Made by a program: the position numbers and the translations under genes
Source: an uncultured delta proteobacterium
GTDB taxonomy: Bacteria > Desulfobacterota > Binatia > UBA9968
Assembly: GCA_963847445.1 (NCBI GenBank)
Contig: CAWJZV010000044.1
Location: 1 to 64,000, forward strand
Reading direction: 5' to 3'
Length of the DNA stretch: 64,000 bases
Shown here: positions 10,066 through 45,124 of the stretch, in pieces
Layout of the letters: every line of letters starts with the position of its first letter
Position numbering within the stretch: the first letter of the stretch is position 1
The notes under the pieces: generated by a model
Database searches by the model: none
What the model saw: the letters and a program-made list of their open reading frames with translations, nothing else
What the model was told of the DNA's origin: nothing

Positions 10066-10120
10066 CAACTAACGGCGAGAAATGACAGGTGCCGGGGCAG
10101 ATAGGCAAGCTAAGGGAGAA

Positions 10121-10195
10121 GAAAAGGGGGTCGGGAGTCTTTTTGATTTTTAACTTGAAGAAATTGACTTACGAAAAGACTCCCGACCCCTTTTC
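10121..10195. repeat. Inverted repeat, REP-like (GAAAAGGGGGTCGGGAGTCTTTT...AAAAGACTCCCGACCCCTTTTC)
   Basis: About 22-bp near-perfect arms around an AT-rich 30-bp loop. Confidence 0.8.
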
Positions 10196-10224
10196 CGATT
10201 CCGTTTCCGATTGGCTGGACTACC

Positions 10225-20758: not shown

Positions 20759-22256
20759 ATGGCGCAAAGCAATTTCAATCCGGTCGAAGCGACCATCGAC
20801 GACATCCACGCCGGCTACAAATCCGGCCAACTCACCTGCCGCCAGGTGGTGCAGGCCTATTTGGATCGTATCGACGCCTTCGACAAAAAAGGGCCGAACA
20901 TCAACGCCATGATCACGGTCAACGCCGAGGCTTTGAACGAAGCCGACAAACTCGACGCGGCGTACAAATCCTCCGGCCCGGTCGGGCCGCTGCACGGCAT
21001 TCCGGTGATCGTTAAAGATCAGGCCGATGTCAAAGGCATGCCGACGACTCTGGGCTCGCTCTTGTTCAAAGACTACTATCCCGACCGCGATTCCTTCGTC
21101 GCGGAAAAATTGAGGAACGCCGGCGCGGTGATTCTCGGCAAAGCGACCCTGGGCGAACTCGGCGGCGGCGACACCCATGGCTCGCTGTTCGGTTCGACGC
21201 GCAATCCTTACGACACCGAACGCACCGTCGGCGGTTCGTCCGGCGGCTCGGCCGCGGCGGTCGCAGCGAACTACTCGACGGTCGCCGTCGGCCAGGAAGG
21301 GCTTGGCGTCGATCCGCCGGCCGTCGACCTGGAACTGCATCGCCGGCATGCGCCCATCCGCGGGCATCGTCAGCCGCAGCGGCGTCTACGGCTGCTGGCC
21401 GGAAGTGTTCGGCTCCCTGGGTCCGATGGCGCGCACGGTCAAAGACCTGGCGATCCTGCTGGACACCATGGCCGGTTACGACCCGGAAGATCCGATCACC
21501 GCCCGCGGCGTCGGCAATACTCCCGACACGTTCACCAAGTTTTTGAATAAGGATGGACTCAAAGGCGCGCGCTTCGGCGTGCTTGCGCGAGTCCATCGGC
21601 TTGAATTCCGAACCGGACTCGGAAGATTTCAAAAAAATCCACGAAGTGTTCGACAAAGCGCTGCGCGAACTCAAGGCCGCCGGCGCCGAGATCGTCGATC
21701 CGATCGTGATTCCGAAGATCAAAGAATTACTCGCCAAACGCTCCGGCGCTCCCGGCGAAACCGAAGCGTCGTTTAAAAACTATTATGGCCGCAGCGCCAA
21801 CCCGCCGTTCAAGACGCCGCAGGACGCGATCGCAGTCGCCCGGACTTCGCCAAGGTCGTCAAGCGTTCGCAGGAGCGCTTCAAGCGCAACCCCGACGCGA
21901 CCAAGCATTACGAGAGTCTGCGCGCCCAGGACGAGCTGATGACCAACTTCTTGAAAGTCATGGCCGATCATAAGCTCGACGCCATCGTCTACAAGTCGGT
22001 GGAGCATCAACCGACCTTGATCAAAGACGGCATCGCGCCGCCGTTCACCGATCAGAAAGGCGCGCCGCATCTGAATACATTTTTGGTCTATGTGCCGACG
22101 ATCACGGTGCCGGCGGGCTTCACGCGGGATAATTTGCCGGCGGGGCTTTGCTTCATCGGCCGTCCCTACGACGACGGCAACTTGATCAAGTACGCCTACG
22201 CCTACGAACAGGCGACGCACCATCGCCGGCCGCCGGCGAGCACGACGGGGCTGTGA
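20759..22256 (+). CDS. Amidase signature family enzyme (several frameshifts)
   Basis: PLHGIPVIVKD, GGSSGGSAAAV, SIRRPS, AYAYEQATHHRRPP across three frameshifts. Confidence 0.85.
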
Positions 22257-22285
22257 TGTGACCGATCGACGATTTTGAGGCTATT

Positions 22286-23271
22286 TCATTCGTAAAGCTT
22301 CTTGAAAAAACCACTCTGATCGAGGGTTCTGACGATTCTTGCGTCGATGAAGGCAGATGGGTCAGCACCCTTTGCCTTTGGATTATCGTTTTCCAAGAAT
22401 TCCAACAAGGTCTTGACACCCGGTGTGGAGACATAAGGCACGCGGTCAAAATACTTGGAAGTGTAACGCTGATAGGTTTTCTCGATATGTTTATCGTGTG
22501 TAGCGTCCATGCGCAGCCGTTTTTTTAGCACATCCACAGCGACATTCTTATTCTTTGCGATATAAGCGACCGCTTCAGCGTAGCCTTTTATGAACCTCAC
22601 CGCTTGGTCTTCCTGGGTTCTTAAATACTCGCGCCTCGCGGCAATCGTGCTTTGTAACGTGTAGAGACGCATAGCGGCAAGGTCGGCAAGTATTCCGTAG
22701 CCGTATTCTTCAGCGATAAAATCTGTTGGCGAGGTCACCACCGCCGCATCGATCCAACCCTTCTGTAAACTAATAAGCATTGTCGGGGAGGGACCCACCT
22801 GGAGCACGGTCATCTCTTCCGGCCTGATCGACCATCGTTTTAACACCATCAAAAGGGTCGAATGCGTGTTAGATCCAAACGCGCTCACCCCTACCCTTTT
22901 ACCCTTCAAATCCTTTGGATTCTTGAGCCCAGGGTGAGAAATAATTCTTTGCGTTCCCAGATTTACATTCGATGCCACCATAACGACGTCGAGCCCGCGA
23001 AGCGCGGCATTAATCGCACCCACTCCTCCGATAGCCATAAACTGAACCTCATTCGAAGCGAGAGCGTTGATTCCCCGGGCAGCACCACCGCCGATGTAAA
23101 CCACCTCGGGCTCTATGCCATATTTTTTGAAAAGCCCTAAGTCTTCCGCCACCCAGATCGCCCAGTTCGTTGGGGAAAGCGCACTCAATCCGACTCGGAC
23201 CTTTTCGGAACCGTGTGCCGGGAAATGGCACAGGAGAAAACAAATATCAAACTTAAGGTCGCTTTGCTCAT
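22286..23271 (-). CDS. ABC substrate-binding protein, NMT1/SsuA-like (frameshift in signal region)
   Basis: GLFKKYGIE, DLKGKRVG, LDQSGFFKKLYE. Confidence 0.8.
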
Positions 23272-23430
23272 TGAGATCGACCTCATCCCGATTGCCAATT
23301 TCTCAGCTCCGTACAATGGACTAAAATTGTCATCAGGTTTTTCGTTCGTCTCGCTTATCGGTAATTTTGCAGAGAATCAAAGATACGTCTAAAAGGCGGG
23401 CTGACCAAGAACCAAACGGATAAACCAGGG

Positions 23431-25390
23431 TTATTTCCATCTTCGAAAAAAGTTCATTTGGTTTCTCTGGAAGGTTTTTTTTCTCGCAGCAACTGCTCTG
23501 CCTCCTCGTCGGATAGCTGTTTCAATCGTCTCAAGCATCTGCTCCAGTATCATGATCCTGCGCCTGCCGCGGCGGCATTTTGTGATCGCTAGAGCAAGTG
23601 CTGCGATCGTCGGTGATTCAAAAAGGCATGAAGCGGCATCGTCAACTTGAAAGCTCTGCGTAATTCGCGACACAATCCGCCCAGCACTTAAGGAATTGCC
23701 GCCCAAGTCGAACAAATTATCATGAACGCCAATCGGATGGATTGTAAGCACTTCCTGCCAAATTCTGACCAATTCGCTGCTCGTCGGCATTGCTCGCCGG
23801 CACGTAAGCTTGCTTCAACTGTGGCCGGGCATTGTCGGGCTTTGGCAACGCTCTACGGTCCAGCTTGCCATTCGCAAAGGGCAGCGAATCGATAAACATA
23901 AATACGCCGGGGATCATGTAATCGGACAGCTTCAATTCAAGAAATTTGCGCAATTCCTCAACATCCAGACCGACTTTGTCCTTTGCCACGATATAGGCCA
24001 CTAGAGATTTGTCTTCTGGCTCGCGTTCCCAGACGGCAACGGCAGCTTCGCTGATTTGCGGATGGCTCAGAAGAGTCCGCTCGACCTCGCTGATTTCCAC
24101 GCGAAATCCACGAATCTTGACCATCAAGTCTTTGCGGCCAACATGAACTAGAAAGCCGTCGGAAAGCATTCGAGCCCAGGTCACCGGTTCGATATATACG
24201 CTCGTCCGGAGATTCAGGCGGGGTCAAGAACTTGGCCGCGTTACGCTCGGGGTTCTTCCAATAGCCGCAGGTGAGATACCGGCTCTGCAGCACGATTTCG
24301 CCGATTTCCCCGGGAGCAACCTCATTACCGTTATCGTCCAGCAGGCGTACCTTCTTCCAAGGAGCTGGGTACCCTACCGGCACCCCGTCCGTCGGAAAGA
24401 CAAAATCGTGGTCCACAATGGCGCCACAAATCCTTCTGGTTTCCGTCGAACCCATGTTGATTTGCAACTGTCGTAGTTTTTGGGAAGCATTTCTTATACA
24501 GGTCGAATTCGATGCTGGTAACCGGCGCCCCGGTGAGGCGAATCTTTCTTAGAGTCGCGGGCGCGCGGTGTTTTCAAAAATTGGCGCTAGGGATCGAAAC
24601 GCTACGGGCGGCAAATGACAGATGGTAATTTCTTGTTCCTTCAACCAGGCGGCAAATCGATCCATACCTTCGGCTTTCAAATCAAACTGACAAACAGCAG
24701 CGCCATTAAGTAGCGAGTAAAATATATCGCCTCGGCCCGACCCAAAGGCTACGGAATGTACCAGGCTCGATCTATCTTCGGGATTCGTGTCATCGAGCAG
24801 GGCCAAGTGCATGTTGACCAAATGGTTGTCGACGACGCCTTTGGGCTCCCCCGTGGAGCCGGAGGTATAAAGAATGCTGACGAATTCATCAGGCCGTTTT
24901 TTCGATCCGAGATTGTCGTCGCCCAGGTTGCCAGCCATTTCATCGATGTTGACAATGGACGTTTGCTCGTTCTGGAACTGCCGCGCTAGACCGAGAGTCG
25001 AATGATTCGTAACGATGACGCCAGCCTCTGAGTGATGCAAAATCTGCCCGATCTTGTTTCGCCGGAAACGAAGTATCGAGCACCGACAAAGAACTTGCCC
25101 GGACTTAAGCACACCCAGCATGGCTGCCACGATGTCGATCACATCGTCCAGCAACAATGCGATCGGTTCACTTTTGGGATCGCGGCGATTCAGCAATGAA
25201 ACGTGCGATACGATTCGCATATCGATTAAGGGAATCGATAATCGATCGAGCGATTCTGCGTCTGGATCGCTAATTTCGTCCCAAAGAGACCAACCATCGA
25301 TTCGAAACGATCGGGAATTGTCTGTTCGATTTCGCTTTTTTTGCGCTCGAGCAATGGGCCAGTGGCGTGACAATACTTTCGCGTACATGG
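23431..25390 (-). CDS. NRPS-like adenylation + carrier (A-T) protein, multiple frameshifts; ends approximate
   Basis: YTSGSTGEPKGV, GSTET, YRTGDL, GRKD.MVKIRGFRVE, NGKLDR, carrier motif DNLFDLGGNSL. Confidence 0.75.
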
Positions 25391-25883
25391 TCCGTCCCTC
25401 TGCCTCTGATGATAACTTTGTCCTCAGATGTGCTCCCGCCCGCGTTATGGACAATCTTCAAACGACCACGCGTACATGCATGGGGCCCATGGGTTGCACA
25501 CCGCACTGATCCGCCGCTGACCGATGCACCAGACGAATCGAGGAACCCGAATAGGCTTTCGTTGCCATGATGTGAGGAATTTTAAGCGATCGGACAATTC
25601 TTCTCAATCGAAGAATAATATTGACCGAACCGAGACAATGACACTTGGCGCGCTATCAATACTTCGATGGGGTCAGGATCCGCGAAAACAGCCAACTTTC
25701 CGCTGTTACGGTTCTTGGCACTCGTCTCCGCGCTTAGCGAGCACGCCGGGATTGCGACGACACAGGTGGTGACAACACGCGAGCACTGGGCGCGAGCATT
25801 GGATTTCGAAAATTGATCCATAACGGTGGCCAGGCCGTTCACCCGCGCCAGCCCCAACCGTGATCGCCCGATGACCGAAAAAT

Positions 25884-26339
25884 CTATCGACCGCGCATCG
25901 TCCAATTATTGCCCTCTCTCTGGGCGCAAAAATTACCGGTCGCATCGATGGCGCGCGGGGTTTCCTCGATATCGGCGATGACGACAAAACAATGACGTGC
26001 CTGGCTAAAGCGGTAGCGAGTATCCGGTTGCACCGTGACCTCGTTCGAACCGGGACGGAAATAGTAAACCCGCTTGGTGGCTACCGTGATGTTACCCGGG
26101 CGCTCTTGGACCTGCAGGGTGGTGGCGCATTCACCGTCGGTATCGGCCTGAACGACCACGCGCCAACTACGAATCTGCTGCCCTTGACCGATGGGATCCG
26201 GCGAAATATCCAGGTCAACGATTCGCATCTTGGTTTGTTTCCCACATAGCGACCAGCCCTGCCCCGATCCGCCGGTGACGCAACCGGCCAGGGCCGTCAG
26301 CCCAAGCACTCCCAACGACCACATTTTTAGATTGTTCAT
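25884..26339 (-). CDS. Hypothetical lipoprotein
   Basis: Lipobox LAGC after hydrophobic stretch; four further Cys, beta-rich. Confidence 0.65.
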   Translation of the reverse strand: MNNLKMWSLGVLGLTALAGCVTGGSGQGWSLCGKQTKMRIVDLDISPDPIGQGQQIRSWRVVVQADTDGECATTLQVQERPGNITVATKRVYYFRPGSNEVTVQPDTRYRFSQARHCFVVIADIEETPRAIDATGNFCAQREGNNWTMRGR

Positions 26340-31859: not shown

Positions 31860-33587
31860 TCAGTCGCTCCCCGCCAACTGCAAACCCAACTTTCGCCCCA
31901 CCAGCATCATGACGCCGATGATCACGGTAATCAGCAAACCCAGCGCCGCCGCCCGTTCCAGCTCGCCGGTGAAGCTATATTCGAGCAACAAGATCGCCAG
32001 CGGGCGCGACTGGTGGCTGTAAAGTAGCACAGGGGTACTGATGCTGGTCAAGGCGCTGCCGAAATTCATCAGCCCCACCGCCGCCGCGATCGGCGCCAAC
32101 AGCGGCAGGAGCACGCGCCGGTACGTGTAGCGCCAGGACGCGCCGCTCACCCGCGCCGCCTCTTCCAAATCGCCGCCCAATTGCAGCAGCCCGGCTTTGA
32201 AGGCCTGGGTGGTCACCGGACTGTCAGCGAGAATCAGCGCCACGGCGATACCCCAAACGCTGCCGTAAAGAAAAAACCGCAGCGGCGTCGCCAGGAACAG
32301 CCAGAGCACGCCGAGGCTTAAAAGAATCCCCGGCAGCACATGAGGTATCCAACAAAGACTTTCCAACAGTGGCCCGGTAATGGTGCGCCGCGAGACTAGT
32401 AAATAAGCCAGGGCGGAATAGAGCAAGACGCCGCCGATGGCCGTCGTGCCGGCGATGATCAAACTATTTTTCAGCGCGATCAAAAAGATCGGATCACTGA
32501 GCATGTTGTGCCAGTGGGTCAACGTGAACGGCGACGCGATGTTGAAAAAGCCGTAACGGCGCATGAACGAGCCGATGACCAGAAACGCCAGCGGCAAAAG
32601 CATCGTCACGGCGACGTAGAACAGGCAGCCGGCGAAAGCAATGTAACGCCACTGGCCCAACTTCACGCGCAATGTGGAATAACCCTGGCCGGTGACCACG
32701 GCAAAATTCTTGCCGCCGCTCAAGTACTTCCAATAAAAAAACAGCAGCACCGCGAGGACGAATAAAAACACCGAGCCCAACGCCGTCGCCTCGCCGTAAG
32801 CGCGCGGCTCGCGCTGAAGCAGGTCGTAAATCTTGGTCGAGTAGACGTAGATTCCCGCCGGCGTGCCGAGCAGCAGCTCGGTGTTGAAGGATTGCAAGCC
32901 GCGAATGAAGCTCAGCACCGAGACCGCCAATATCATCGGCGCCAAGACCGGCAGGGTAATGCGCCAGAGCATGGTCGCGGTATTGGCGCCGGCCACCCGC
33001 GCCGCCTCTTCGAGAGTCGCGCCCAACCGGCGAAACACCGGCACCAGCAACATCACCTTGAACCAAATGCCGCCGGTGGAAGTGTGCACCCAGACGATGC
33101 CCCAAAAACCGTAGGGATTGAACGGCGCGCCGTCGACCCCCGGCAAACTTTTGGCCACGCTATTGAGAAAGCCGAAGTTGGGATCGAGCAGCAATATCCA
33201 CGCGAGCACCAAGGGAAAATCCGGCACGAAGTAAGCGATCCAGCAGACCGCCTCGATAAACTTGCCGCCGGGCATGTCGGTGCGCGCGATCAGCCAGGCG
33301 AATGACACCGACAAGATCATCGCCGGAATCAGCCGCACGACTGAAAGCAGAAAACTCATCCACAAGGCGTTCAACGTAGCGCTGTCGGTAAAGGCATGAC
33401 GCCAATTGTCGATGCCGTAAACCGCCGGTTTTCCGGGCGCGCTCAGGTTGAAACTACCGGTGAGCAAGAACAGCAACGGCAATCCCATGGCGACGACGAG
33501 GAAGATCAAGAACGACAACTCCGCCAGACGAATCGGCCGGAGGTGCATTCGCCGCCATCGCGGCATGGTTGTTGCGTTTATTGCCAT
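31860..33587 (-). CDS. ABC permease (FbpB-like, two EAA repeats)
   Basis: LEEAARVAGA and LEEAARVSGA; many TM helices. Confidence 0.9.
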   Translation of the reverse strand: MAINATTMPRWRRMHLRPIRLAELSFLIFLVVAMGLPLLFLLTGSFNLSAPGKPAVYGIDNWRHAFTDSATLNALWMSFLLSVVRLIPAMILSVSFAWLIARTDMPGGKFIEAVCWIAYFVPDFPLVLAWILLLDPNFGFLNSVAKSLPGVDGAPFNPYGFWGIVWVHTSTGGIWFKVMLLVPVFRRLGATLEEAARVAGANTATMLWRITLPVLAPMILAVSVLSFIRGLQSFNTELLLGTPAGIYVYSTKIYDLLQREPRAYGEATALGSVFLFVLAVLLFFYWKYLSGGKNFAVVTGQGYSTLRVKLGQWRYIAFAGCLFYVAVTMLLPLAFLVIGSFMRRYGFFNIASPFTLTHWHNMLSDPIFLIALKNSLIIAGTTAIGGVLLYSALAYLLVSRRTITGPLLESLCWIPHVLPGILLSLGVLWLFLATPLRFFLYGSVWGIAVALILADSPVTTQAFKAGLLQLGGDLEEAARVSGASWRYTYRRVLLPLLAPIAAAVGLMNFGSALTSISTPVLLYSHQSRPLAILLLEYSFTGELERAAALGLLITVIIGVMMLVGRKLGLQLAGSD

Positions 33588-33593
33588 CGCCAA

Positions 33594-34687
33594 TCACGCT
33601 GCGCGAATGTGCAGGTGCGATGGATCGAGCGCCAAGCGGATCGTACGCGCCGATCGGGTAGCGGTGTTTTTTTGCCGCGGTCAACACGAAGGTAATCCCA
33701 CTGGCGCGGACATGATATTCGAAACTCTCGCCCAGGTAAGCGACCTGATCGACCGTGGCGATCATTTGATAGGGTTGTAGCTCGCCGTCGGCTAAGATCT
33801 CGATATCCTCTGGCCGGGTTTGCAAGTGGACGGGAACCCCGTCATCGAACGCTGCCACGAGCGCCGCCGCCGCCGGACTGGACGCGGCCATTTCCAGCCA
33901 ACTCAAGCCAACAACCAGCGGCGTTTTTAATAACCTTGCCTGGGAAACTAACCATGCGCCCCAAAAACCCGGCGGCGAATTCAGTCTGCGGCTTTTCGTA
34001 GACTTCCTCCGGTGTGCCTACCTGCTCGAATCGGCCGCGTTGCACCACCGCGATGCGGTCCGACAAAGTCATCGCTTCGGCTTGGTCATGGGTGACGTAA
34101 AGCACCGTCAGGCCCAGTCGCTTCTGTAGTGTGCGAATCTCGACGCGCATCTGCTCGCGCAGTTTAGCATCGAGATTGGACAGCGGTTCGTCGAGCAAAA
34201 GAATCTCCGGCTCGTAGACCAGCGCGCGGGCGAGCGCCACACGTTGCTGCTGACCGCCGGACAGCTCGGTCGCGCCGCGCTCGCCAAAGCCGCCGAGGCC
34301 GACGATTTCCAGCCCATGCTCGACCCGCCGGCGGACGGTCTCATTCGACTCGCGGCGCACGCGCAACGGAAATGCGACGTTTTCGAAAACCGTCAAATGC
34401 GGCCAGATGGCGTAGGACTGGAACACCATGCCGAGCCGGCGCTTTTCCGGCGGCACGCAGAAACCACGGGCGGGCGCCGCGACGCTTTTCCCAGCTATGA
34501 AAATCTCACCGCCATCGGGCTCTTCCAAACCGGCGACCAGACGCAGCGTGGTGGTCTTGCCGCAACCGGACGGCCCCAACAGGGTGAAGATCTCGCCGCG
34601 TTCGATAGCAAAGCTCACGCCGTCGACGGCATTGACCGCGCCGAAGCGTTTGACCACATCGCGAAACTCAAGAACGGCAGCGCTCAT
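33594..34687 (-). CDS. ABC ATP-binding protein (FbpC/PotA-like); frameshifts in TOBE region
   Basis: GPSGCGKTT, LSGGQQQRVAL, LLDEPLSNLD. Confidence 0.9.
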
Positions 34688-35880: not shown

Positions 35881-36250
35881 CTATTCGCCCTTGGCAGGAG
35901 TGAAGGTCATTTTCGACAGGAAATTCTTCTCACCCTTGGTGACATATTCGACCGTCGCCGACGAACCCAAGCCGACATCGGCCATTTTCGCTTTGGTATC
36001 GACAAGTTCAGTTGCCTTGGTTTTAGCATTGTAGTCTAGAGTCACCAGCTTGCCGTCTTTGGTTACCACGATCATGTAATTTTTTTCGGTATCCAATAAG
36101 CCGATATCGCCGGAAACTTTTTCCGCTTTGGCCTTAGCCGGTTCGGCTTTCTTTTCTCTCGGCTTTCTTCTCCTGCGCCACCACCGGCAACGCTACCGAT
36201 AGCGCGAACATCACGGCCATTGCCCCGATAACTTGCTTGCTTGTTTTCAT
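35881..36250 (-). CDS. Small secreted protein, PAKGE family type B (frameshift near 36155)
   Basis: MKTSKQVIGAMAVMFALSVALPVVAQE signal; GDIGLLDTEKNY...FTPAKGE; AAGGAG RBS. Confidence 0.75.
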
Positions 36251-36297
36251 CTCTATTTCTCCTTACTGGTGCGTATTTTGCTCGGCTGCTCGTGAGG

Positions 36298-36735
36298 CTA
36301 CTCCCCTTTTGCCGGGAGATACTCGACACTTGAAGCGACATTCTTGTCGCCATCCTTGGTGTAAACCACCGTCGCCGCCGATCCTAGGCCGATGTCGGCA
36401 ATCTTAGCAGGCTTCAGTTCACGCTGGGTCGGCTGAAACTTTGCGTCATAATCCACCGTCACCAACTTGCCTTCTTTGGTCACGATAATCAGGTAATTCT
36501 TCTCGGTATCCAGTAACCCGACATCCCCTGCGATCTTGGTGGCCTTCGCCGCTGGCGCTTTCGCTTCTGCTTTCGCCTCAGCTTTGGCTTCGGTCTTTGC
36601 CGGTGCCGCGGGTGCCGGCGCAGCCGGTTTCGGCGCCGGCTTGGGGGCCATCTCTTCTTGCGTCGAACACGCTATAAAACCCAGCGACATCGCTAACAAT
36701 GCCGCCCCACTCACTGATGCCAGATTCTTCATCAT
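36298..36735 (-). CDS. Small lipoprotein, PAKGE family type A
   Basis: Lipobox FIAC, Pro/Ala/Lys/Glu linker, GDVGLLDTEKNY...YLPAKGE. Confidence 0.8.
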   Translation of the reverse strand: MMKNLASVSGAALLAMSLGFIACSTQEEMAPKPAPKPAAPAPAAPAKTEAKAEAKAEAKAPAAKATKIAGDVGLLDTEKNYLIIVTKEGKLVTVDYDAKFQPTQRELKPAKIADIGLGSAATVVYTKDGDKNVASSVEYLPAKGE

Positions 36736-36861
36736 TCCTCCGTGCTGAACTAAAATTACTAATTAAGTGTTCCAATTACTTATCGTGACCGTCGCTATCT
36801 TCTCAATACGCATTAGGTAGGGTTTTTCGAACAGACCCAGAGTTGACGCAACCATGGACAC

Positions 36862-36873
36862 GACTTAAGTCCT
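36862..36873. promoter_or_regulatory. Palindromic candidate operator GACTTAAGTC(CT)
   Basis: Perfect 10-bp palindrome in divergent intergenic region; identical 12-mer at 39809. Confidence 0.5.
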
Positions 36874-36985
36874 AGAAAAACGATTCCAGGCAACGGCGCC
36901 GATTGCACGCAAAATTGGTTGATGTATGCTCCCTCAAGTCTACGAATCCAGTCTTAGATCTTGTGGATAAGAGGCGAGGTTGACG

Positions 36986-37648
36986 ATGACACCGATAAAA
37001 GTCGTAATTGCCGACGATCACCCGCTGTTCCGTGACGGCTTGCGGAAAATTCTTTCGTTAGAAAAAGATATCCTGGTGGTTGGCGAAGCTGCGGACGGCG
37101 ACGAGCTCGCTAAAACGATTGAACGCACTAAGCCCGATATCCTGCTTCTCGATTTAAAAATGCCCAAGGGCGACCCGGTGCAAAACCTTCTCGGCGTCAG
37201 CGTCAAGAGCCCCTCGACTCAAGTGATGGTTCTGACGGCGTTCACTGAAGAAGAAAACGTCTTGAATGCCGCGAAAAGCGGAGCGAGGGGTTTTATTTCG
37301 AAGGGGACGCCATCGGCTACCGTTATCCAGGCGATAAGAGCCGTCCATAACGGCGCATTTTGGGTCGACAATGACGTGCCCGCCAGGGACGCTTTCGAAG
37401 AGATCGTCGGCTCCCGGCCGGTGGAGAGAACGACACTGCCACAACCGGACGAAAGCATCCAGTCTCTGACCAAACGCGAGATGGAGATTCTCAAATTAGT
37501 CGCCGAAGGCCTGACCAACGAAGAGATCGGCAAGAAAATTTTCATCAGCGAAAAGACCGTCAAAACCCACTTGACCAACATCTTCGACAAACTGAAAGTC
37601 AACAACCGCTTCAAGGCGGCGCTCTTGCTGATGGGCCAGAGCCACTAA
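36986..37648 (+). CDS. NarL/LuxR-family response regulator
   Basis: ADDHPLFRDG, LLLDLKMP, LTKREMEIL, ISEKTVKTHLTNIFDKL. Confidence 0.95.
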   Translation: MTPIKVVIADDHPLFRDGLRKILSLEKDILVVGEAADGDELAKTIERTKPDILLLDLKMPKGDPVQNLLGVSVKSPSTQVMVLTAFTEEENVLNAAKSGARGFISKGTPSATVIQAIRAVHNGAFWVDNDVPARDAFEEIVGSRPVERTTLPQPDESIQSLTKREMEILKLVAEGLTNEEIGKKIFISEKTVKTHLTNIFDKLKVNNRFKAALLLMGQSH

Positions 37649-37704
37649 AGTCGACGCATCGGGCGATTTCTCAAGAAACAAACGCTAATACCGCTTGCAG
37701 GCTT

Positions 37705-38907
37705 ATGACCATGGCCACCACCGGTAACACGCCGCTCGAAGAGAGCTGGTTCCTGGAACGGGAGCGCGCTGTGGCGTGGCTGCGGCTAGCTTTCGCCGTG
37801 TTGGCGATCGCCGTCATCCAGCTCAATCCGGAACGGGTCGCGCGCTTTCCCCTGATGTCAGGTCTCGTGCTCGTTTCCTTTCTCATTTACAGCGCCATCG
37901 CGCTGGTTCTTGTCGTGCGAAGAAATTCCGTTTTTTCGAGTTTTGGCTCGGTTGCGACGGCTTTGGATGTCGTCTGGATTGCGCTCATCGTATTTTCCAC
38001 CGGCGGCACCCGAACGCCCTTTTTCTTTTATTACTCGTTTCCAGTCATCACCGCGAGCTTGCGTTGGGGCCTTAAAGGCAGTCTGCCGGTGGCGTTCATC
38101 GGCGTTGCCATTTACGTAAGCATCCGATTGTCCTTAGCCGCCGAATCCATCGACCAACCGATAGGCATCGATACGATCGTGGTTCGCAGTCTTTACTTGA
38201 TCTTTCTGGCTGGGGTGTTTGGCTACATCAGTGAATTCGAGAAGAGGCAGAATCAAAAACTCTTGGCGTTATCGAAGACCGCGGCTAACGTAGCCGTGAT
38301 GCAGGAACGCCGGCGCATCATGTTCGACATCCATGACGGCATCTTACAATCGCTGGCCACCTTGATTCTGCGCCTGGAAAGCACCCGGGGACGGCTACCG
38401 GAGTCGCAGAGCGAAGCGATTCAGGAACTGCAAGCGGCGGAAGAGTTATCTCGCTCGACGATGAAAGACCTCCGCGCATTCCTGGCGGGCAAGACGGATC
38501 GTCCCATCATGTCAGGAACTTTGATCGAACGGCTGCAAGAGGAGCTGCGATTCATCCAAGAAGGGCTCGGTCTGGAAGTGATCTTGGATTGCGAACCGGA
38601 AAATCTCAATCTACCGGCTGAAATCGAGCGAGAGCTCTATTACGTGTTGCGCGAAGGCTTAACCAATATCACCCGTCACTCTCATGCTTCGCGTGTCCAA
38701 TTTCGACTCAACCAATTGGCGAGCGCTATCGAGGTCTCTCTCGAAGATAATGGCGTCGGATTGGACCTGCGGACCGCCGAAAATGGCCGTGGACTGGGAT
38801 TGCGCAGCATGAAGGAGAGAATTGAAAAACTAGGGGGAGAACTTGCTCTCAAGTCCTCCCCCTCAAGCGGGACAAAAATTTCTTTCTCAGTGCCCCTGAC
38901 GACCTGA
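37705..38907 (+). CDS. Membrane sensor histidine kinase (HisKA_3)
   Basis: Multiple N-terminal TM helices; ERRRIMFDIHDGILQ, EGLTNITRH, DNGVG, GLGLRSMKER. Confidence 0.92.
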   Translation: MTMATTGNTPLEESWFLERERAVAWLRLAFAVLAIAVIQLNPERVARFPLMSGLVLVSFLIYSAIALVLVVRRNSVFSSFGSVATALDVVWIALIVFSTGGTRTPFFFYYSFPVITASLRWGLKGSLPVAFIGVAIYVSIRLSLAAESIDQPIGIDTIVVRSLYLIFLAGVFGYISEFEKRQNQKLLALSKTAANVAVMQERRRIMFDIHDGILQSLATLILRLESTRGRLPESQSEAIQELQAAEELSRSTMKDLRAFLAGKTDRPIMSGTLIERLQEELRFIQEGLGLEVILDCEPENLNLPAEIERELYYVLREGLTNITRHSHASRVQFRLNQLASAIEVSLEDNGVGLDLRTAENGRGLGLRSMKERIEKLGGELALKSSPSSGTKISFSVPLTT

Positions 38908-38970
38908 GAAAGAAATTGTCTCAGAATACGCGGCGGTTTGGTGTGACGGGGCTAACCGCGGCCCAGTAAA

Positions 38971-39324
38971 CTACTCGCCCTTAGCCGGCACAAAAATCAT
39001 CTTGGTCAGGAAGTTCTTATCGCCTTTGGTTACATATTCCACCTGAGCGGAGGAACCCAGTCCGACATCGGCCATCTTGGCCTTTGTGTCGACCAGTTGG
39101 GTCGTTTTGGTTTTCGCGTTAATGTCCACTGTGACCAGCTTGCCATCCTTGGTGACCACGATCATGTAATTCTTTTCGGTGTCGAGCAAACCGATATCGC
39201 CGGCTACTTTCTCGGCCTTGGCCTTGGCTGGCTCGGCCTTCTTCTCCTGCGCCGCTGCCGGCAAGGTCAAAGCTAATACCGCAGCCGCCGCTATCCCACC
39301 AAGTAATAAGTTGTTAGGTTTCAT
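38971..39324 (-). CDS. Small secreted protein, PAKGE family type B
   Basis: Signal peptide ending LPAAA-QE; GDIGLLDTEKNY...FVPAKGE. Confidence 0.8.
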   Translation of the reverse strand: MKPNNLLLGGIAAAAVLALTLPAAAQEKKAEPAKAKAEKVAGDIGLLDTEKNYMIVVTKDGKLVTVDINAKTKTTQLVDTKAKMADVGLGSSAQVEYVTKGDKNFLTKMIFVPAKGE

Positions 39325-39374
39325 CCTTTGTCTCCTTCTAATGCATATCCTAGCGTGAAGATTCGTCCAGCGCT

Positions 39375-39788
39375 CTATTCGCCCTTTGCCGGCAGATACT
39401 CGACGTTGGTGGCGATGTTCTTATCTCCCTGTTTGGTGTACGTCACCGTCGCCGAGGAACCAAGACCGATATCCGCCACCTTAGACGGTTTTGGCGTCCT
39501 CATCGTCGGCTGAAACTTAGGATCATAATCCACCGTCACCAGCTTGCCGTCTTTGGTGACGACAATCAGATAGTTTTTTTCGGTATCCAACAAACCGATA
39601 TCGCCGGCAATCTTAGTCGCTTTGGCCGCCGGTGCTTTCGCCTCCGCTTTTGCTTCGGCCTTCGCTGCCGGCGCCGCCGGCTTAGGCGCCGGCTTGGCGA
39701 CCATCTCTTCCTGCGACGAGCAAGCGTTGATCCCGAAAGCGAGTGCGACTACCGCGGCGGTATTCGTGATCGATAAATAATTCTTCAT
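39375..39788 (-). CDS. Small lipoprotein, PAKGE family type A
   Basis: Lipobox INAC, PAAK-rich linker, ...YLPAKGE; GGAGG RBS. Confidence 0.8.
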   Translation of the reverse strand: MKNYLSITNTAAVVALAFGINACSSQEEMVAKPAPKPAAPAAKAEAKAEAKAPAAKATKIAGDIGLLDTEKNYLIVVTKDGKLVTVDYDPKFQPTMRTPKPSKVADIGLGSSATVTYTKQGDKNIATNVEYLPAKGE

Positions 39789-39808
39789 TGATGCCTCCCA
39801 GTTATTAA

Positions 39809-39833
39809 GACTTAAGTCCTGTATCTAAGTCAT
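39809..39833. promoter_or_regulatory. Palindromic candidate operator GACTTAAGTCCT plus partial second site
   Basis: Just upstream of the RBS of 39788; followed by GTATCTAAGTC. Confidence 0.5.
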
Positions 39834-39954
39834 TCGTCGTATACTTTACGAAGCGTCGCCTTGTCAAGCAGATAAACAAGGATTTTTCCAAACCAGTGAT
39901 AGATTCTCACCGCGCGCCGCATAGCGGCGCTGACATCGCATGCCGAGCGACTAT

Positions 39955-40546
39955 TTATGACGATGCGCGCGGACGGATCTCAACGAAACGAGCGCGACGG
40001 TTGTTGAGATGACAAGCTTCCGTTGACTCGCGGCACGAGGGCAGCTCTTCACCGTAGCTGGTAGTCTTGATGCGCGCCGGATTGACACCCAAGGCTTACC
40101 AGGTAGTCCATCGCCGCCCGCGCCCGCTTGGCGCCCAGGGCGAGGTTATATTCCGTCGTGCCGCGCTCGTCGCAGTGACCCTCGATCTCGACCATGCTGC
40201 TCGGGTTGGCCTTTAGCCACGCTGCGTTGGCCCCTAAAACCGTTCGAGCATCCGCAGTCAGATTGAAACTGTCGAAATTGAAATAGATCGTTTTCATCGG
40301 TCCATCCGCGGCCGCTTTGCCCTGGCGCAGTGCATCCAAGCTCGAACCCGACGACGACGGGTTCGACGAGACCACAGGCTTCTCGGCAGGCGCGCGTCCG
40401 GTGGATGGTGCAGCAACCGCGCCGGATGGCCGAGATATCGCCTCCGGCTTCTTGGCGGTCTCAGTTGCGCAACCGGCGACCGCCACAACGCTTGCAACGA
40501 CCAACCCAAGCCAATACTTTGTCACAAACAAATCGATTGGTTTCAT
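39955..40546 (-). CDS. pal: Peptidoglycan-associated lipoprotein Pal/OmpA-like (frameshift near 40085)
   Basis: Lipobox VAGC; IYFNFDS, IEGHCDERGTTEYNLALG.KRA; SYGEE...NRRA in shifted frame. Confidence 0.85.
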
Positions 40547-40772
40547 CCTGCTCTACCTCCTCAAATGGATTGCCTATACGGAGCGCGAAACAGCTCGACA
40601 AAGTTTCCCCTCTTGAATAAATCTTACAGCTGCAACAACTCAGACGCCTGTTGTGCTGAATCTGACATGCTCGACCGGGAATACCTCTGCCAACAGAGCA
40701 CCGATCACAGAGTAACTTGGGCGGGTGACGCATAAACCGTGGACAATTATCCGGCCACAGTCCGCCGAAACT

Positions 40773-40805
40773 AAAAGGGGGAAGCCATTGCTGACTCCCC
40801 CTTTT
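40773..40805. terminator. Hairpin terminator after porin
   Basis: AAAAGGGGG...CCCCCTTTT. Confidence 0.65.
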
Positions 40806-40831
40806 GGTTGCTTCGTCTGTAAGCTCCGCGC

Positions 40832-42341
40832 TTAGAACTGGTAGCGCCAGTTCAAGAACCACTCGATCCAGTCGCCGCCTTTGCCGTTGCGGCAGCCGGC
40901 AGGAGCATTCGTACACACGTCAAGATTATGCGCCGATTGGTTCCTGGCATTTTGCAGGTTCGAGGCGTCGGTCCACAGGATGTTGACACCCATGCTCATC
41001 CGCGGCGCGATGAAGTACCACAGATCCCACTCGTTGAGCCTGATCGCGGTGCGGTGAAAGTCGCCGCTGTTGAGCGTCGCCGGGCAGGGTATGCCCGTGT
41101 TGCCATTACAACCCACCGACATGTCGGTGCGCTCAAAGTGGTAGCCGACCAGGATCGATCCGGCTGTCGTCGACGACCCGGTCAACCAGCCCTTGGGACT
41201 CCACAGAAACAGATCGTGACCGATCAGGAATACCCGGGCTTTCTTTTGGCCTCTGCCATTCGCTACGTTGCCGGCGATGCCGGTGCCGCGATCCTCGGAT
41301 CTTTGAAAATTCATCATCGTCCGCAAGGTGTACGGACCGACGTTCCACACCATGCCGGGACCCGTTTGGATATGTCAGGCCGTCGCCAATCGAGTTGGCG
41401 CCGGTGTCGAATAACGTCTGTCCGGCCGCCACGGGCGTTAGTCTGAATGCGGTACCGGTTGCAACCATTCGACACTGCGCGGTTATCCGCGTTACAGAAC
41501 CACGCGCCACACTCGAACGGTCAAGCCGCTGATCCATTTGTTCTTCACCTGCGAGAACGGCTGGATGTTGCCGTAGGCATGGAAGTCTTTACGGTCGGTG
41601 TTGATCTGCGCGCCGTCGCCGCCTTCGCCGTAGGCGTTCATGCCGACTTGAAACCGGGCGATGCGGCCGGGGATGCCGATGCCGTTCAGCGCTTTGTCCT
41701 CCCAGGTAAGGGTAATGCCGGAACCCGCGCTACCGGTGTTGAACCCTAAATTCTGTGACATCATGTCGTACTCTGCCTGCGCGCCCGTGCCACCCGAGCC
41801 CTGGCGGGACAAACTGGTGCGGACCCGAGTTGGTCGTGTCCATGCCGAACCCAATCTGCGGCAGCCAGGGGTTGATATTTTCGGCATGAAAGTAAATCAT
41901 ACCGCGCTGTAACATCTGTGTTGCCGCCAAAACCGTCAAGGTCGAGACGCCAGTCGATTTCCCATAGGCAGTTGTTGACGCACAGATAAAACTCCGGCCG
42001 GAAGCGCCGCCCTTCCAACTCGCCCTGCTGCGGCCGACCTGGTCGCGGCCCTGAAGAAAATTGTAGCGCATATGCGCTTCGAACGAATGACGAAACGACC
42101 AGGACTTGTCGGCCGCTTCGATCATCATGCCATTGCCGGGACGATACGAAAACGAGGGCATCGCCGCCGCCGCCGCCGTCGCCTCTTTCTTCAACTCGAT
42201 CTGCGATTCTTTTAGCTGCTGGAGTTCCTGCTCAAGCGCGCTGATCTTGTCACTGACGCTCTGCGCTTGAACCGTTCCCGCCGCTAGAAGGAAAGCAGCT
42301 AGCAGACTCGCTAACCACATACTCTTCTTCTGCATACCCAT
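40832..42341 (-). CDS. Outer-membrane beta-barrel porin (OprO/P-like architecture), several frameshifts
   Basis: Signal peptide, coiled coil LEQELQQLK, amphipathic beta-strands, terminal WRYQF. Confidence 0.7.
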
Positions 42342-42672
42342 TGCCTCCTTTTGCCTCCCTGAAATTTGCTACTTACTTAGTCCTACTTCCGGCATTTTTT
42401 AGCCCAACCTGCCAATTCTGTCAAGCTAAAAGTCGTATTCAAGAAAAAAATCCTGAGTAATTAGTCGACCATTTGTACGCGTTTTGGCCGTAATAATCTA
42501 AATTACCCAGCTACGTCACGCCAAAAGTAGTAAGACTCTATGGCCTAAGACTTAGCCTCGATCCGACGCCAAGCTATGGAATCGCCAAAGGTTTCTGGAA
42601 ATCTGTGGCTCTCACAGCCAAACCGACGATTGTTGTGAAGTAGCGCGGCCTTCGCTAGACTCTGCGCCTAAC

Positions 42673-43777: not shown

Positions 43778-44972
43778 CTAAAACAGTGCGCGTTTGCGCG
43801 GCGGATCGAAGAACGGCAGCTTGACCACGGTGGCGCTGGCGCTTTTTTGCCGGTGATCCACCGTCACGTCAATATCGAGCTCCGTGCCGACCGGCACGCA
43901 TTTCTGTTCGACGGTCGCCAAGGCGATATATTTTTTTAGCGCCGGAGACCAGGCTCCGGTGGTCGCGTAACCGACTTGGCGGTCGTCTTTGCGCAGCGGC
44001 ACGCTGCCGCGCCAGGCCACCAACGGGTATTGCGGCGCCAGACCGGCTTGTTGATAGAGATATTCATAGTCGAGCAGGCTGATCTCCAAGCCGACAACCT
44101 GCCGCTCCGGCCCCCGCGGGTCGCATTGCCGCAGCGCTTTGGCGCCGACGAAATGATCCTTGCGCAAGTCCACCGTCCAGCCCAGACCGATCTCGAAGGG
44201 CGAATAACGCTGCGACTCGATCACCGCCTTTTCGGCGCCGATATAGTCGACTTCGAGGAGGATAAATCCCGCCTCCAGCCGCGCGACATCGAGCGCCAGT
44301 ATGCCGGTGGGTTTGATGCCGTAATCACCGCCCTGCTCGATCAAGACATCCCAGATCTTGAGCGCATGCTCGGCGCCGAACCATAGTTCGTAGCCCAGAT
44401 CACCGGTGTAACCGGTGCGCGATACGATCACCGGGACATCGAGAATCTTGCCCGGGGTGAGGCGAAAGAATTTGAGCTGGGTTAAGTCGACGTCGACGAT
44501 GGTCTGAAGAATCTTCAAGGCATGGGGCCCTTGCAATGCGAGGGCGGCAATCTGCTCCGAGACTTCCTGAATTGAAACTTCCATGCCGCGGGCGTTGAGC
44601 GATGAGCCAGCGCAGGCTCGGATCGGCAAGGTGAAAACGGAAATAGTCCGCGCCCAGGCGAAACACCGTGCCGTCCTGAATCACCGCGCCGTCGTCTTCG
44701 CACAGACAGCCGTACAGCGCCTGGCCGACGGCGCATTTCGCCGCGTCGCGGGTGATCACGCGGTTGACCAGCTTGAGCGCGTCCCTGCCGCGCACGTCGT
44801 ATTTGTACAGCGGCGAGACATCGATCAGCGCCGCGCTATTGCGGATCGCGTGATACTCATAGTCATGCATCACGTCGTAGGAGCTGGCGACAAAGTAGCC
44901 CGACCAGGTGCGCCAATTGTGACTAGCGCAGAGCGCCGCGGTGCGCGGGTGAAAGGGAGTTCCGATGGGCAT
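43778..44972 (-). CDS. GcvT-family aminomethyltransferase-like folate-binding protein (frameshift near 44600)
   Basis: LIDVSPLYK, LALQGP, SRTGYTGDLGYELW, ARLEAG, LPFFDP. Confidence 0.88.
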
Positions 44973-45124
44973 GGCAGCTAGACAGAGTCTTGAGATAGAG
45001 ACCGCCCAACCTCCCAACTCAAAATATTCGCCTTCATTCCGTCTCTATCTCGCATCTCTGTCTGCGTTGCTGATTGACTTGCTGGTCGAAATTACCAAAT
45101 ATGCCCTATTAAGCAAATCACAAC

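Follow-up and report, generated by a model that had tools for sequence, protein, structure and literature searches.

In the CusRS-CusCFBA locus, a two-component system lies beside the genes for the periplasmic barrel protein CusF and an outer-membrane channel. The BOF family comprises periplasmic OB-fold stress proteins that are encoded next to, or placed under, two-component systems, as in QseBC-YgiW and YdeI (OmdA); YgiW and YdeI are linked to envelope stress, and YdeI also to porins. CpxP is a known parallel for an accessory that conveys envelope state to a kinase or feeds back on it, RcsF is a known lipoprotein accessory in envelope signalling, and MacRS of Streptomyces reportedly controls membrane-protein genes. 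For sensor kinases with a lipoprotein accessory there are published examples: QseG with QseE (PMC6075780, PMC12691602) and NlpE in the Cpx system (PMC6538781). DUF5666 (PF18914) is an uncharacterised bacterial beta-barrel repeat domain, and in the available portions of the literature the term appears only in tables, without a function.

We analysed a window of 64,000 nt, positions 1-64,000 of the forward strand of contig CAWJZV010000044.1 (GCA_963847445.1), in which two lipoprotein (A) and secreted protein (B) gene pairs flank a NarL-type regulator and a HisKA_3 kinase. The whole layout described in a first-pass annotation of this DNA was recovered on the sequence. Our preferred reading, to which we give a probability of roughly 0.55, is a self-contained envelope module, specific to its lineage, that regulates itself and whose output consists of periplasmic barrel proteins. 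The regulator (NarL/FixJ-type, receiver domain and GerE HTH; 36980..37648, plus strand) precedes the kinase (HisKA_3 and HATPase_c; 37705..38907, plus strand). Divergent from them is a pair on the minus strand, comprising A-div (36298..36735; 145 aa, lipobox LGFIAC, Pro/Ala/Lys-rich linker and core) and B-div (35881..36250, start near 36250; signal peptide MKTSKQVIGAMAVMFALSVALPVVAQEKK... and a 76-aa core, in two frames). Convergent on them, also on the minus strand, are A-up (39375..39788; 137 aa, lipobox FGINAC) and B-up (38971..39324; 117 aa, signal peptide ...LPAAA/QEKK). A terminator-like hairpin of 14 pairs, G-C in 8 of them, followed by a T-run (38832..38863, minus strand), lies 3' of B-up and within the 3' end of the convergent kinase gene.

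The four exported paralogs have in common a core of 76 aa, 41 of whose columns are invariant; it opens with a highly conserved GDxGLLDTEKNY and closes with PAKGE/AKGGD. Across this core A-up and A-div are 80% identical and B-up and B-div 88%, against 62-63% between A and B, and a tree of cores places A and B in two separate clades; hence the A+B unit was duplicated whole, as had been suggested from the first reading of the sequence. In the A proteins the barrel is carried by a Pro/Ala/Lys-rich tether of 35-45 residues, and these lipoproteins would be located in the outer membrane. Scans of the four window proteins found no Pfam or NCBIfam family for the core, which bears out the earlier impression of an unrecognised family, and none of the four reached PF18914 even at E<=1. 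More than 4485 homologues were found; among the 120 listed, none carries a Pfam domain and all are named 'hypothetical protein' except one 'YgaU'. A search with the core profile returned 86 clusters at E<=1e-3. PF18914 was present at E<=0.01 in 9 of the 26 clusters scanned, above its cut-off in 8 of those 9, and in 9/9 the core HMM overlapped the best DUF5666 stretch called by Pfam. Multi-repeat DUF5666 proteins were matched by the profile at E values from 2.4e-16 to 6e-4, and the nearest named clusters in the Atlas are DUF5666 (score 0.93). An AlphaFold2 model of B-up (pLDDT 85.3) has the strand order b1-b2-b3-turn-b4-b5. Profile matches, Atlas neighbours and model together support the first-pass guess of a DUF5666-like protein, and by these predictions the core is a five-stranded small beta-barrel and a remote relative of DUF5666. 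Both groups are exported small barrels recognised by the core profile; unlike the DUF5666 repeats, the window proteins are single-domain, form a lipoprotein/soluble pair and are tied to a two-component system.

Solved structures offer no functional analogy, since Foldseek found no match to the barrel model among them at E<=0.001 and the best VIA match has a Z of only 3.0. The resemblance to CusRS-CusCFBA, in that the two-component system adjoins genes for a small periplasmic barrel and an outer-membrane channel, would allow A and B to be periplasmic cation or metal chaperones in the manner of CusF/SilF. To this may be added that CusF_Ec is a minor family among the Atlas neighbours (12% of one cluster) and occurs among weak Pfam matches in DUF5666 repeat proteins, that SilF and CusF are among the weak fold matches (Z 2.5; E 0.98), and that the core has several invariant Asp/Glu residues, including D2, D7, E9, D26 and D45. 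We nonetheless think it very unlikely: those fold matches are at noise level, Cys, His and Trp are absent from all four cores and A and B have no conserved Met in common, so that a CusF-type Met/His/Trp site is absent, and no efflux pump or transporter is conserved beside the module. Moreover, CusRS has an OmpR-type regulator and an RND pump, whereas the present locus has a NarL-type regulator and no RND pump. The BOF systems are also similar in having small exported barrels whose genes diverge from a two-component system or stand under its control, but in the present locus a lipoprotein and a soluble form are paired and the pair occurs twice, and Pfam scans gave no sequence or profile link between the BOF family and A or B.

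The response regulator matches PF00072 (2.8e-22) and PF00196 (1.8e-22) in Pfam, and the NarL and MadR models of NCBIfam, both below cut-off. The kinase matches PF07730 (4.4e-11) and PF02518 (1.8e-13), and hydropathy indicates five to six hydrophobic segments between residues 21 and 176, joined by loops no longer than about 10 residues; the hydropathy scan revealed no extracytoplasmic (periplasmic) domain. It also matches the NCBIfam models of MacS (2e-27, nearly full length, 96 bits against a cut-off of 300) and LiaS (5.4e-25, 88 bits against 450), and in this the system is like LiaFSR and MacRS of Streptomyces, intramembrane-sensing NarL/HisKA_3 systems; it differs from both in scoring far below the family cut-offs, in having no LiaF-like gene and in having exported barrels as putative targets. 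Lacking a periplasmic sensor domain, the kinase must receive its input from the membrane or from a partner, which raises the alternative that A and B are signalling accessories rather than just outputs, A and/or B reporting envelope state to the kinase or feeding back on it. The long flexible tether of A could span the periplasm, A-B remains beside the kinase even where the loci have diverged most, and the documented lipoprotein accessories provide precedents. QseG-QseE, NlpE-CpxA and RcsF resemble the present arrangement in that a tethered outer-membrane lipoprotein acts on an inner-membrane sensor or is co-encoded with it, but there the kinases or partners have periplasmic domains and the folds are unrelated. 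Such short loops leave little periplasmic kinase surface to act upon, two loci keep A-B without a two-component system, and two copies of each pair would be unusual for a sensor accessory. We therefore regard an accessory role as credible, albeit unlikely.

Under the preferred reading, the NarL-type regulator and a kinase with a wholly intramembrane sensor part would control two paralogous two-gene operons, probably through the 16-bp palindrome TAnGACTTAAGTCnTA, placed at both A promoters and at the regulator's own divergent promoter. The palindrome occurs upstream of both A genes: once in the divergent A-div/regulator intergenic region (36859..36874, 23.1 bits, core GACTTAAGTC at 36862-36871) and once 30 nt upstream of the A-up ATG (39806..39821, 23.9 bits, core 39809-39818). 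Two exact copies are found in the window against 0.02 expected, and in 716,613 nt of related loci all 19 of 19 exact copies lie 198-372 nt upstream of the start of an A-type core. A weight matrix built from 50 sites, all in other genomes, ranks 39806..39821 first and 36859..36874 second in the 7.19-Mb genome; a weaker match in the regulator leader region (36941..36956, 11.7 bits) serves as a lead only. It is consistent with these positions that the palindrome is a candidate operator bound by the adjacent regulator. Since it is common to both A upstream regions, it fits the suggestion of an inducible, co-regulated module, and the module may well be inducible. On contig C7, a second locus, two strong palindromes stand ahead of a sigma-54 activator gene, hence the site is not private to the A/B module.

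An alignment of 30 upstream regions reveals a conserved promoter-like block upstream of A-up (39838..39867, minus strand), made up of CTTGACAA, with TTGACA at 39867-39862, followed by an 18-nt spacer and TATACG at 39843-39838; a consensus promoter scan did not call it. The strong palindrome lies downstream of this block and a degenerate second copy (approximately 39831-39846) overlaps its -10-like part, AGTATACGAC, an arrangement that would suit repression better than activation, or else the action of another regulator. Matches in RNA libraries are contigs only, and are silent on level, start and regulation.

The family is present in 27 of 36 genomes of one family-level lineage of uncultured soil bacteria, in 0 of 24 genomes of two sister families and in 3 of 401 across the phylum. 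Among 58 related loci there are 74 adjacent A/B pairs, and in 59 of the 61 with complete N-termini a lipobox-bearing protein is followed by one that has no lipobox, so the A/B distinction and the A-then-B order are conserved. So too is the linkage to the two-component system: a kinase or regulator gene is alongside in 47 of the 58 loci, and of the remaining 11, 9 are truncated by a contig end. Loci L074 and L090 keep A-B and the palindrome without an adjacent two-component system. Gene order is still kept where kinase identity to the window drops to 47%, and the most divergent loci have the order A <HK <RR B. All loci come from one lineage and have flanks in common, with hisF at one end and dksA-lolA-ftsK-rnj at the opposite end, so part of this conservation is inheritance, not selection. 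The near confinement of the family to a single clade and the conserved housekeeping flanks would also suit the view that A/B, two-component, Pal-like and porin genes are unrelated neighbours by descent, frozen in a narrow-lineage syntenic block. We consider this quite unlikely, because the palindrome recurs in the promoter regions of both A genes and in the divergent one of the regulator, duplicated A-B pairs flank the two-component system to left and right, and the core order stays where flanks vary: the window, L037 and L038 depart from the other loci in their downstream flank, and the Pal-like gene, the porin and the c19 gene are variably present. The conserved module is probably an envelope response.

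Each operon would yield the A lipoprotein together with B as an unanchored protein of the periplasm, both with a divergent DUF5666-type barrel; the barrels would most likely be periplasmic binding or buffering proteins, possibly A-B assemblies, and would form the output arm of a response to the state of the envelope or membrane. The proposal that A and B pair up is weakly supported by complex prediction, with a score of 0.60 against 0.00 for the best of three controls; A and B being 62%-identical paralogs, this score cannot separate A-B from A-A or B-B pairing. The mark applied is passed by 58 of 80 solved complexes and by 2 of 110 mismatched pairs; scores at or below 0.60 among those passing belong to 7 of the 80 solved complexes and to both mismatches. 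Contacts agree by at least 97% between runs and partner pLDDT is at least 83. A and B may therefore associate. The roles put forward in the first-pass annotation, namely ligand capture, delivery from the porin and envelope reinforcement, draw no support from these results.

Upstream of A-up, on the minus strand, are a Pal-like OmpA-domain lipoprotein gene (39958..40546, lipobox VAGCA) and an OprO/OprP-like outer-membrane porin gene (40835..42341), separated by a terminator-like hairpin (40778..40801, minus strand). The first-pass annotation had made both part of the module. A Pal-like gene is present in 11 of 27 loci, a porin in 9 of 21 with enough flank and both in 3 of 21; these are frequent but dispensable neighbours, not fixed parts. 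The term 'orphan Pal' was imprecise in that the gene is one of 18 OmpA/Pal-like matches in the genome, and a TolB-linked Pal exists. We rejected the window gene as the Tol-linked Pal, as the TolB-adjacent copy is on another contig; the window gene is a paralog.

The porin has a signal peptide, a coiled coil in its N-terminal part and a barrel of the 16-strand type, and its C-terminus reads ...WRYQF. An intact ortholog from L037 has OprP (2o4v) as its best match (E 9.1e-21, TM 0.70 by target length), and OprP/OprO structures (2o4v, 4rjx, 4rjw) are its best fold matches; the likeness is limited by a sequence identity to them of 13-14% and a model pLDDT of only 69, and a search for PF07396 gave no match even at E<=10. 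The Atlas neighbours of the ortholog are PF07396 clusters. OprP and OprO being phosphate/diphosphate porins, the locus might serve anion or phosphate acquisition, the porin admitting a solute that the A/B barrels hold in the periplasm; the genome holds a second porin paralog with two copies of the palindrome close by, and a weak palindrome match lies upstream of the window's own porin (42539, 12.3 bits), both of which point the same way. We judge this very unlikely, given that only 9 of 21 loci have the porin, that it has its own terminator-like hairpin downstream and that Pst/Pho genes are not conserved nearby.

Several genes are split between reading frames in this assembly. In B-div the signal peptide (frame of 36250) and the core (frame of 36168) are mutually out of frame, the break coinciding with a short, imperfect repeat that contains A-runs (near 36150-36170); alignment of the intact L035 ortholog starts in frame -1 (36250-36152) and continues in frame -2 (36177-35884). 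In the Pal-like gene the frame shifts near 40079-40095; the porin coding sequence is distributed over at least three frames. These frameshifts are probably assembly indels, favoured over decay because an intact ortholog is covered end to end in every split gene. Further split genes in the window are those for an ABC ATPase (33454-34687) and a GcvT-like protein (43778-45017).

The four small exported paralogs lie on the minus strand in two pairs, and between these a NarL-type regulator (Response_reg and GerE; 36980–37648) and a HisKA_3/HATPase_c kinase (37705–38907) are encoded on the plus strand. Each pair combines a lipoprotein (A) with a plain secreted protein (B). A-up (39375–39788; 137 aa, lipobox FGINAC) and B-up (38971–39324; 117 aa, with a plain signal peptide, …LPAAA/QEKK, followed by the core) form the pair that adjoins the Pal-like gene (39958–40546, minus strand), and A-div (36298–36735; 145 aa, lipobox LGFIAC) and B-div (35881–~36250) form the other. 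Both A proteins have a signal peptide with a terminal lipobox, then a Pro/Ala/Lys-rich stretch and then the 76-residue core. The four cores align without gaps, 41 of the 76 columns being invariant; identity is 80% between A-up and A-div, 88% between B-div and B-up, and 62–63% between A and B. Further upstream on the minus strand, alongside the OmpA-domain lipoprotein, is a large exported protein ending in …WRYQF, the porin (40835–42341). Every gene that the first-pass annotation had described from the sequence was recovered in ORF lists and three-frame translations, as was its arrangement of one divergent and one convergent pair, A-div/B-div being divergent from the regulator and A-up/B-up convergent on the kinase.

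Three of these genes are split. The signal peptide and core of B-div are in different frames, with the break at a short imperfect repeat containing A-runs near 36150–36170; the Pal-like gene switches frame near 40079–40095, and the porin is spread across at least three frames in the present assembly. We read these breaks as assembly indels because intact orthologs span all three genes end to end in tblastn comparisons, because a gene for a GcvT-like aminomethyltransferase (43778–45017) is likewise in two frames by tblastn and an ABC-transporter ATPase (33454–34687) in two ORF pieces, and because, to judge from record titles, long-read metagenome bins are common among the closest relatives; alternatively, the three genes may be real pseudogenes. 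The assembly seems generally rich in single-base indels. G+C content is 0.51–0.53 at 22001–26000, compared with 0.56–0.61 across most other parts of the window, and tRNA and Rfam scans of the window returned no matches.

The first-pass annotation did not recognise the core family, and Pfam and NCBIfam likewise contain no family matching it at E≤1. RsgI_N, KRE1 and sCache_2 appeared in scans of the four paralogs as sub-threshold noise and were dismissed. None of the four matches DUF5666 (PF18914; gathering score 27 bits) even at E≤1. A word-indexed search returned more than 4485 homologs of the core at E≤1e-3, and the 120 listed are free of Pfam domains and are named ‘hypothetical protein’ save one labelled ‘YgaU’. 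An exhaustive search of 1.84 billion cluster representatives with a core profile recovered 86 clusters at E≤1e-3, so the family is numerous yet compact. The distant tail of this search consists of multi-repeat proteins; DUF5666 is found at E≤0.01 in nine of 26 clusters scanned, eight of them exceeding the Pfam cut-off, and in all nine the stretch matched by our core HMM overlaps the best DUF5666 stretch in Pfam. Independently of the profile search, the nearest named neighbours in the Atlas protein-cluster resource are DUF5666 clusters (score 0.93). At profile level, then, the core is homologous to bona fide DUF5666 repeats, and the earlier guess of an ‘OB-fold/DUF5666-like’ domain was correct at the level of the superfamily. 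DUF5666 is itself uncharacterised, and some of the papers that name it list it in tables only. Variant architectures are seen in distant relatives: P0121 (222 aa) has two tandem cores; P0142 and P0147 have a helical N-terminal region of ~160 residues rich in Glu, Arg and Lys ahead of the core, and P0158, P0166 and P0190 carry a C-terminal CPEG(R/Q)PCP extension.

An AlphaFold2 model of mature B-up from a 29-row alignment (pLDDT 85.3) has the order b1-b2-b3, a long loop with a helical turn, and b4-b5, with a disordered PAKGE tail. The core is thus predicted to be a small all-beta barrel within an exported protein, as in DUF5666. Searched with this model, Foldseek found nothing in the PDB at E≤0.001, and a wide VIA-align structure search produced only generic Tudor-, SH3- and OB-like barrels, the highest Z being 3.0 and none reaching 5. 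Conservation peaks in b1–b3 and their loops (GDxGLLDTEKNYxIxVTKxGKLVT), the region in which the ligand face of an OB-like barrel is expected. For CusF/SilF proteins (PF11604) the structure searches gave 2vb2 at E 0.98 and 8bwv at Z 2.5 (rmsd 2.4 over 41 residues). The Met/His/Trp site with which CusF-type proteins bind Cu(I) or Ag(I) is absent, for the cores lack Cys, His and Trp and their Met is not conserved; a role for A and B as CusF-like cation chaperones is very improbable.

The pairing of lipoprotein with soluble protein is strict across related genomes. We found 74 adjacent pairs at 58 loci from species-representative genomes. In 61 of them the N-termini are complete, and in 59 of these a gene with a lipobox precedes one without; one exception has a frameshifted N-terminus and the other a lipobox missed by the search pattern. 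The lipobox reads LGFIAC and FGINAC in the window and L[SA][SA]C in 59 of the 61 first genes, and by a signal peptide that ends in a lipobox with its Cys the A proteins classify as bacterial lipoproteins with predicted lipidation. Writing HK for kinase and RR for regulator, gene order over the 58 loci is (porin) (Pal-like) A B <HK <RR A' B', where A' and B' denote the regulator-side pair. HK or RR adjoins the pair at 47 of the 58, and nine of the other 11 start within 466 nt of a contig end, leaving two loci, L074 and L090, truly without a two-component system. Two copies are present on each side in 27 of the 38 loci with both HK and RR. The most divergent loci (L076, L081, L084, L086 and L087) have one lipoprotein before the kinase and one secreted copy beyond the regulator. 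The two loci without sensor genes (L074:2456–3247 and L090:9758–10627) retain an A–B pair with a palindrome upstream of A; in L090 the layout A <HK <RR B of its relatives seems to have collapsed to A B. At another locus, L047, the A cores of two copies (10001–10661 and 13098–13758) are identical to each other, as are the B cores, which could reflect recent duplication, gene conversion or an assembly artefact.

In a tree of 159 cores from a quick maximum-likelihood search over 77 columns, not reliable in its fine structure, A-type cores are separated from B-type cores with SH-aLRT values of 95 on each side. Copies from both pairs are intermixed inside each clade, which argues that A and B were duplicated as a unit, in agreement with the first-pass proposal; for the divergent loci with single copies, both cores are placed within the B clade. 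The tree supports an A/B split predating the duplication of the unit, for the main group at least. Exactly these four copies are present in the window's genome (7.19 Mb in 48 contigs). The family occurs in 28 of 61 relatives, a count that includes the window's genome and the unpublished genomes G005 and G035, and is present in 27 of 36 genomes of the same GTDB family, none of five and none of 19 in two sister families, and three of 401 in an even phylum-wide sample. Record titles and the Atlas mostly label the lineage ‘Candidatus Binatia/Binatota’ or ‘uncultured delta proteobacterium’.

That the A and B subunits pair up, as had been suggested, is weakly supported by structure prediction: the A–B complex scored 0.60 against 0.00 for the best of three controls, a score that for paralogs does not separate hetero- from homo-association. 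Agreement of contacts between runs was at least 97% and partner pLDDT at least 83. The mark set for this score was passed by 58 of 80 solved complexes and two of 110 mismatched pairs, and at 0.60 or below by only seven of those 80, plus both passing mismatches.

By domain content the regulator is assigned to the NarL/FixJ type, with a receiver (PF00072, 79.4 bits) and a GerE/LuxR HTH (PF00196, 79.1 bits), and the kinase to the HisKA_3 type, with a dimerisation/phosphoacceptor domain (PF07730, 43.6 bits) and HATPase_c (PF02518, 51.3 bits), all above Pfam cut-offs. Five or six hydrophobic segments of the kinase lie within residues 21–176, joined by loops of about 10 residues or fewer, and point to an intramembrane-type sensor. 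Among curated models it comes closest to MacS (96.3 bits, cut-off 300) and LiaS (88.3 bits, cut-off 450), scores so far under the NCBIfam cut-offs that it would not rank as an equivalog of either.

The window contains two exact copies of a 10-bp palindrome, GACTTAAGTC, where 0.02 are expected, and two copies appeared in none of 100 shuffles. The site at 36862 is in the A-div/regulator intergenic region, 136 nt ahead of the A-div ATG, and that at 39809 is 30 nt ahead of the A-up ATG. Related loci, 716,613 nt in total, contain 19 exact copies; each lies 198–372 nt upstream of the start of an A-type core, a distance that places it in an A-gene upstream region, and variants with up to two mismatches are found in 50 of 66 A upstream regions outside the window (consensus TAAGACTTAAGTCTTA). 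With a weight matrix built from the 50 sites, leaving the window out, the two window sites rank first and second in the whole genome (23.9 and 23.1 bits). The exact 10-mer is not enriched genome-wide, having six copies against ~4.5 expected from composition; three of the other four (on contigs C4, C33 and C45) fall inside ORFs or on their borders.

When 30 and 33 upstream regions were aligned, two distinct promoter-like architectures emerged, defined by cross-genome conservation only. The first A gene is preceded by CTTGACAA, ~17–18 nt, a degenerate palindrome copy (AGTATAcGACt) and then the strong palindrome; upstream of the regulator-side A gene are the palindrome, ~45–55 nt, AAAAtcctACctAaaGcGTATTGAGA, 17 nt and GATAAgt. 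A consensus promoter scan identified no sigma-70-like site in either A upstream region. Terminator-like hairpins are present downstream of B-up and of the porin. The obvious binder for such a palindrome would be a dimeric HTH protein, and the simplest candidate is the NarL-type regulator encoded alongside; the location of the A-up site would be as compatible with repression as with activation.

We consider the module to be an autoregulated response to the state of the envelope or membrane, with a probability of roughly 0.55. Its output would be two operons, each supplying one tethered and one free periplasmic barrel protein. Alternatively, A and B might themselves serve the sensor, as accessory or feedback components, which is possible if rather unlikely. 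A further proposal, and a doubtful one, is that they are tethered and free forms of a single periplasmic signalling barrel that informs a kinase without a periplasmic domain. Outer-membrane or periplasmic state would then be reported to the kinase, the soluble paralog competing or relaying, with feedback on A and B from the two-component system through the palindromic operator. Such envelope surveillance would recall RcsF, NlpE and QseG, but with a barrel of the DUF5666 type, and if true it would provide the first function for the DUF5666 superfamily. DUF5666-like barrels are exported, widespread and as yet assigned to no function.

What the first-pass annotation observed is thus real and well above chance, and its interpretation is supported in part only. 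A two-component system with small exported barrel proteins of the DUF5666 superfamily is of a known general kind; it is the subfamily, the strictness with which its lipoprotein and soluble forms are paired, a duplication that flanks the sensor genes and the conserved palindrome that look undescribed, judging from Pfam and NCBIfam scans, database names and a literature search of limited coverage. The function suggested here for the module is our inference. The module answers no long-standing question so far; it is another instance in which a NarL/HisKA_3 sensor embedded in the membrane is coupled to exported proteins, here in a soil lineage that is abundant and uncultured. With two proteins, a single regulator, a single kinase and a DNA site that is defined, it offers a compact, testable handle on DUF5666-like barrels. 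Strict pairing of lipid-anchored and free versions of one domain is an unusual design, and could show how the periplasm makes use of tethering.

The Pal-like protein has a Pfam OmpA domain. Against TIGR02802, the model for Pal of the Tol-Pal system (cut-off 125.35 bits), its first piece scores 86.2 bits and its separate frames 86.8 and 32.4 bits, lower bounds reduced by the frameshift. The gene is not adjacent to tolB or tolQRA and had been called an orphan Pal, a description that is imprecise: the genome has 18 Pal/OmpA-like matches, and beside its sole TolB-like match (C15:251218–252204) is a Pal above the cut-off (C15:252713–253015). Given this Tol-linked copy, the window gene is a Pal paralog rather than an orphaned Tol-Pal component.

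The porin belongs to no Pfam or NCBIfam family, three intact orthologs lacking PF07396 even at E≤10, and its 1037 homologs are ‘hypothetical’. An intact ortholog (L037:7310–8815) modelled from 30 sequences (pLDDT 69.4) best matches OprP (2o4v; E 9.1e-21, TMq 0.58, TMt 0.70) and OprO, in agreement with its Atlas neighbours, and a 16-stranded barrel like these is predicted. Capture of anions by A and B in connection with this porin is nevertheless most improbable. Having its own terminator-like hairpin, the porin is probably a separate transcription unit, and it is present within 5 kb in nine of the 21 loci with enough flank. A Pal-like gene is found within 1.2 kb in 11 of 27 such loci; one or other is present in 15 of 21, and both in three of 21.

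Housekeeping genes make up the outer flanks: on one side hisF, a GcvT-like gene and an FAD oxidoreductase, on the other a dksA-like gene, lolA, ftsK and an RNase J-like gene. Of these, only dksA-like and lolA representatives were compared with Pfam, the other names being read from sequence. A supposed conserved neighbour, ‘two LolA genes’, was rejected since the single-linkage cluster c1 mixes the LolA gene with a longer unrelated ORF. The loci share one syntenic position in one lineage, the window having a different downstream flank, so part of their conservation is inheritance; that the genes are associated by mere synteny is, all the same, improbable.

No sequencing run contained half or more of the sampled words of the stretch, and the contigs placed on it were uninformative at the frameshift sites of B-div and the Pal-like gene. 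Contigs 90–99% like it, mainly over B-up and A-up (38859–39985), occur in three RNA-library runs from three studies, and single runs have pieces over B-div, A-div, the regulator end, the kinase end and the Pal-like gene. Being assembled from relatives, these contigs document occurrence only, not level, strand, ends or regulation, and gaps in them are meaningless.

A lipoprotein family of ~480 residues, ‘c19’, for which Pfam and NCBIfam gave no match, recurs in seven loci (L047, L052, L061, L074, L075, L084 and L088; e.g. L074:657–2102), immediately ahead of either the first A gene or the Pal-like gene. At 42539–42554 of the window, ~200 nt upstream of the porin start, the palindrome model matches weakly (12.3 bits). 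The third and fourth best matches in the genome, C7:307808 (21.7 bits) and C7:307990 (21.9 bits), belong to a second locus on contig C7 (306400–311300; L091:3405–8265), where they lie between a 455-aa ‘c19’-family lipoprotein and a sigma-54 AAA+ activator gene, apparently in two pieces of 145 and 312 aa. Adjacent to these is a paralog of the OprO/P-like porin with a frameshifted gene, and the locus may be part of the same regulon.
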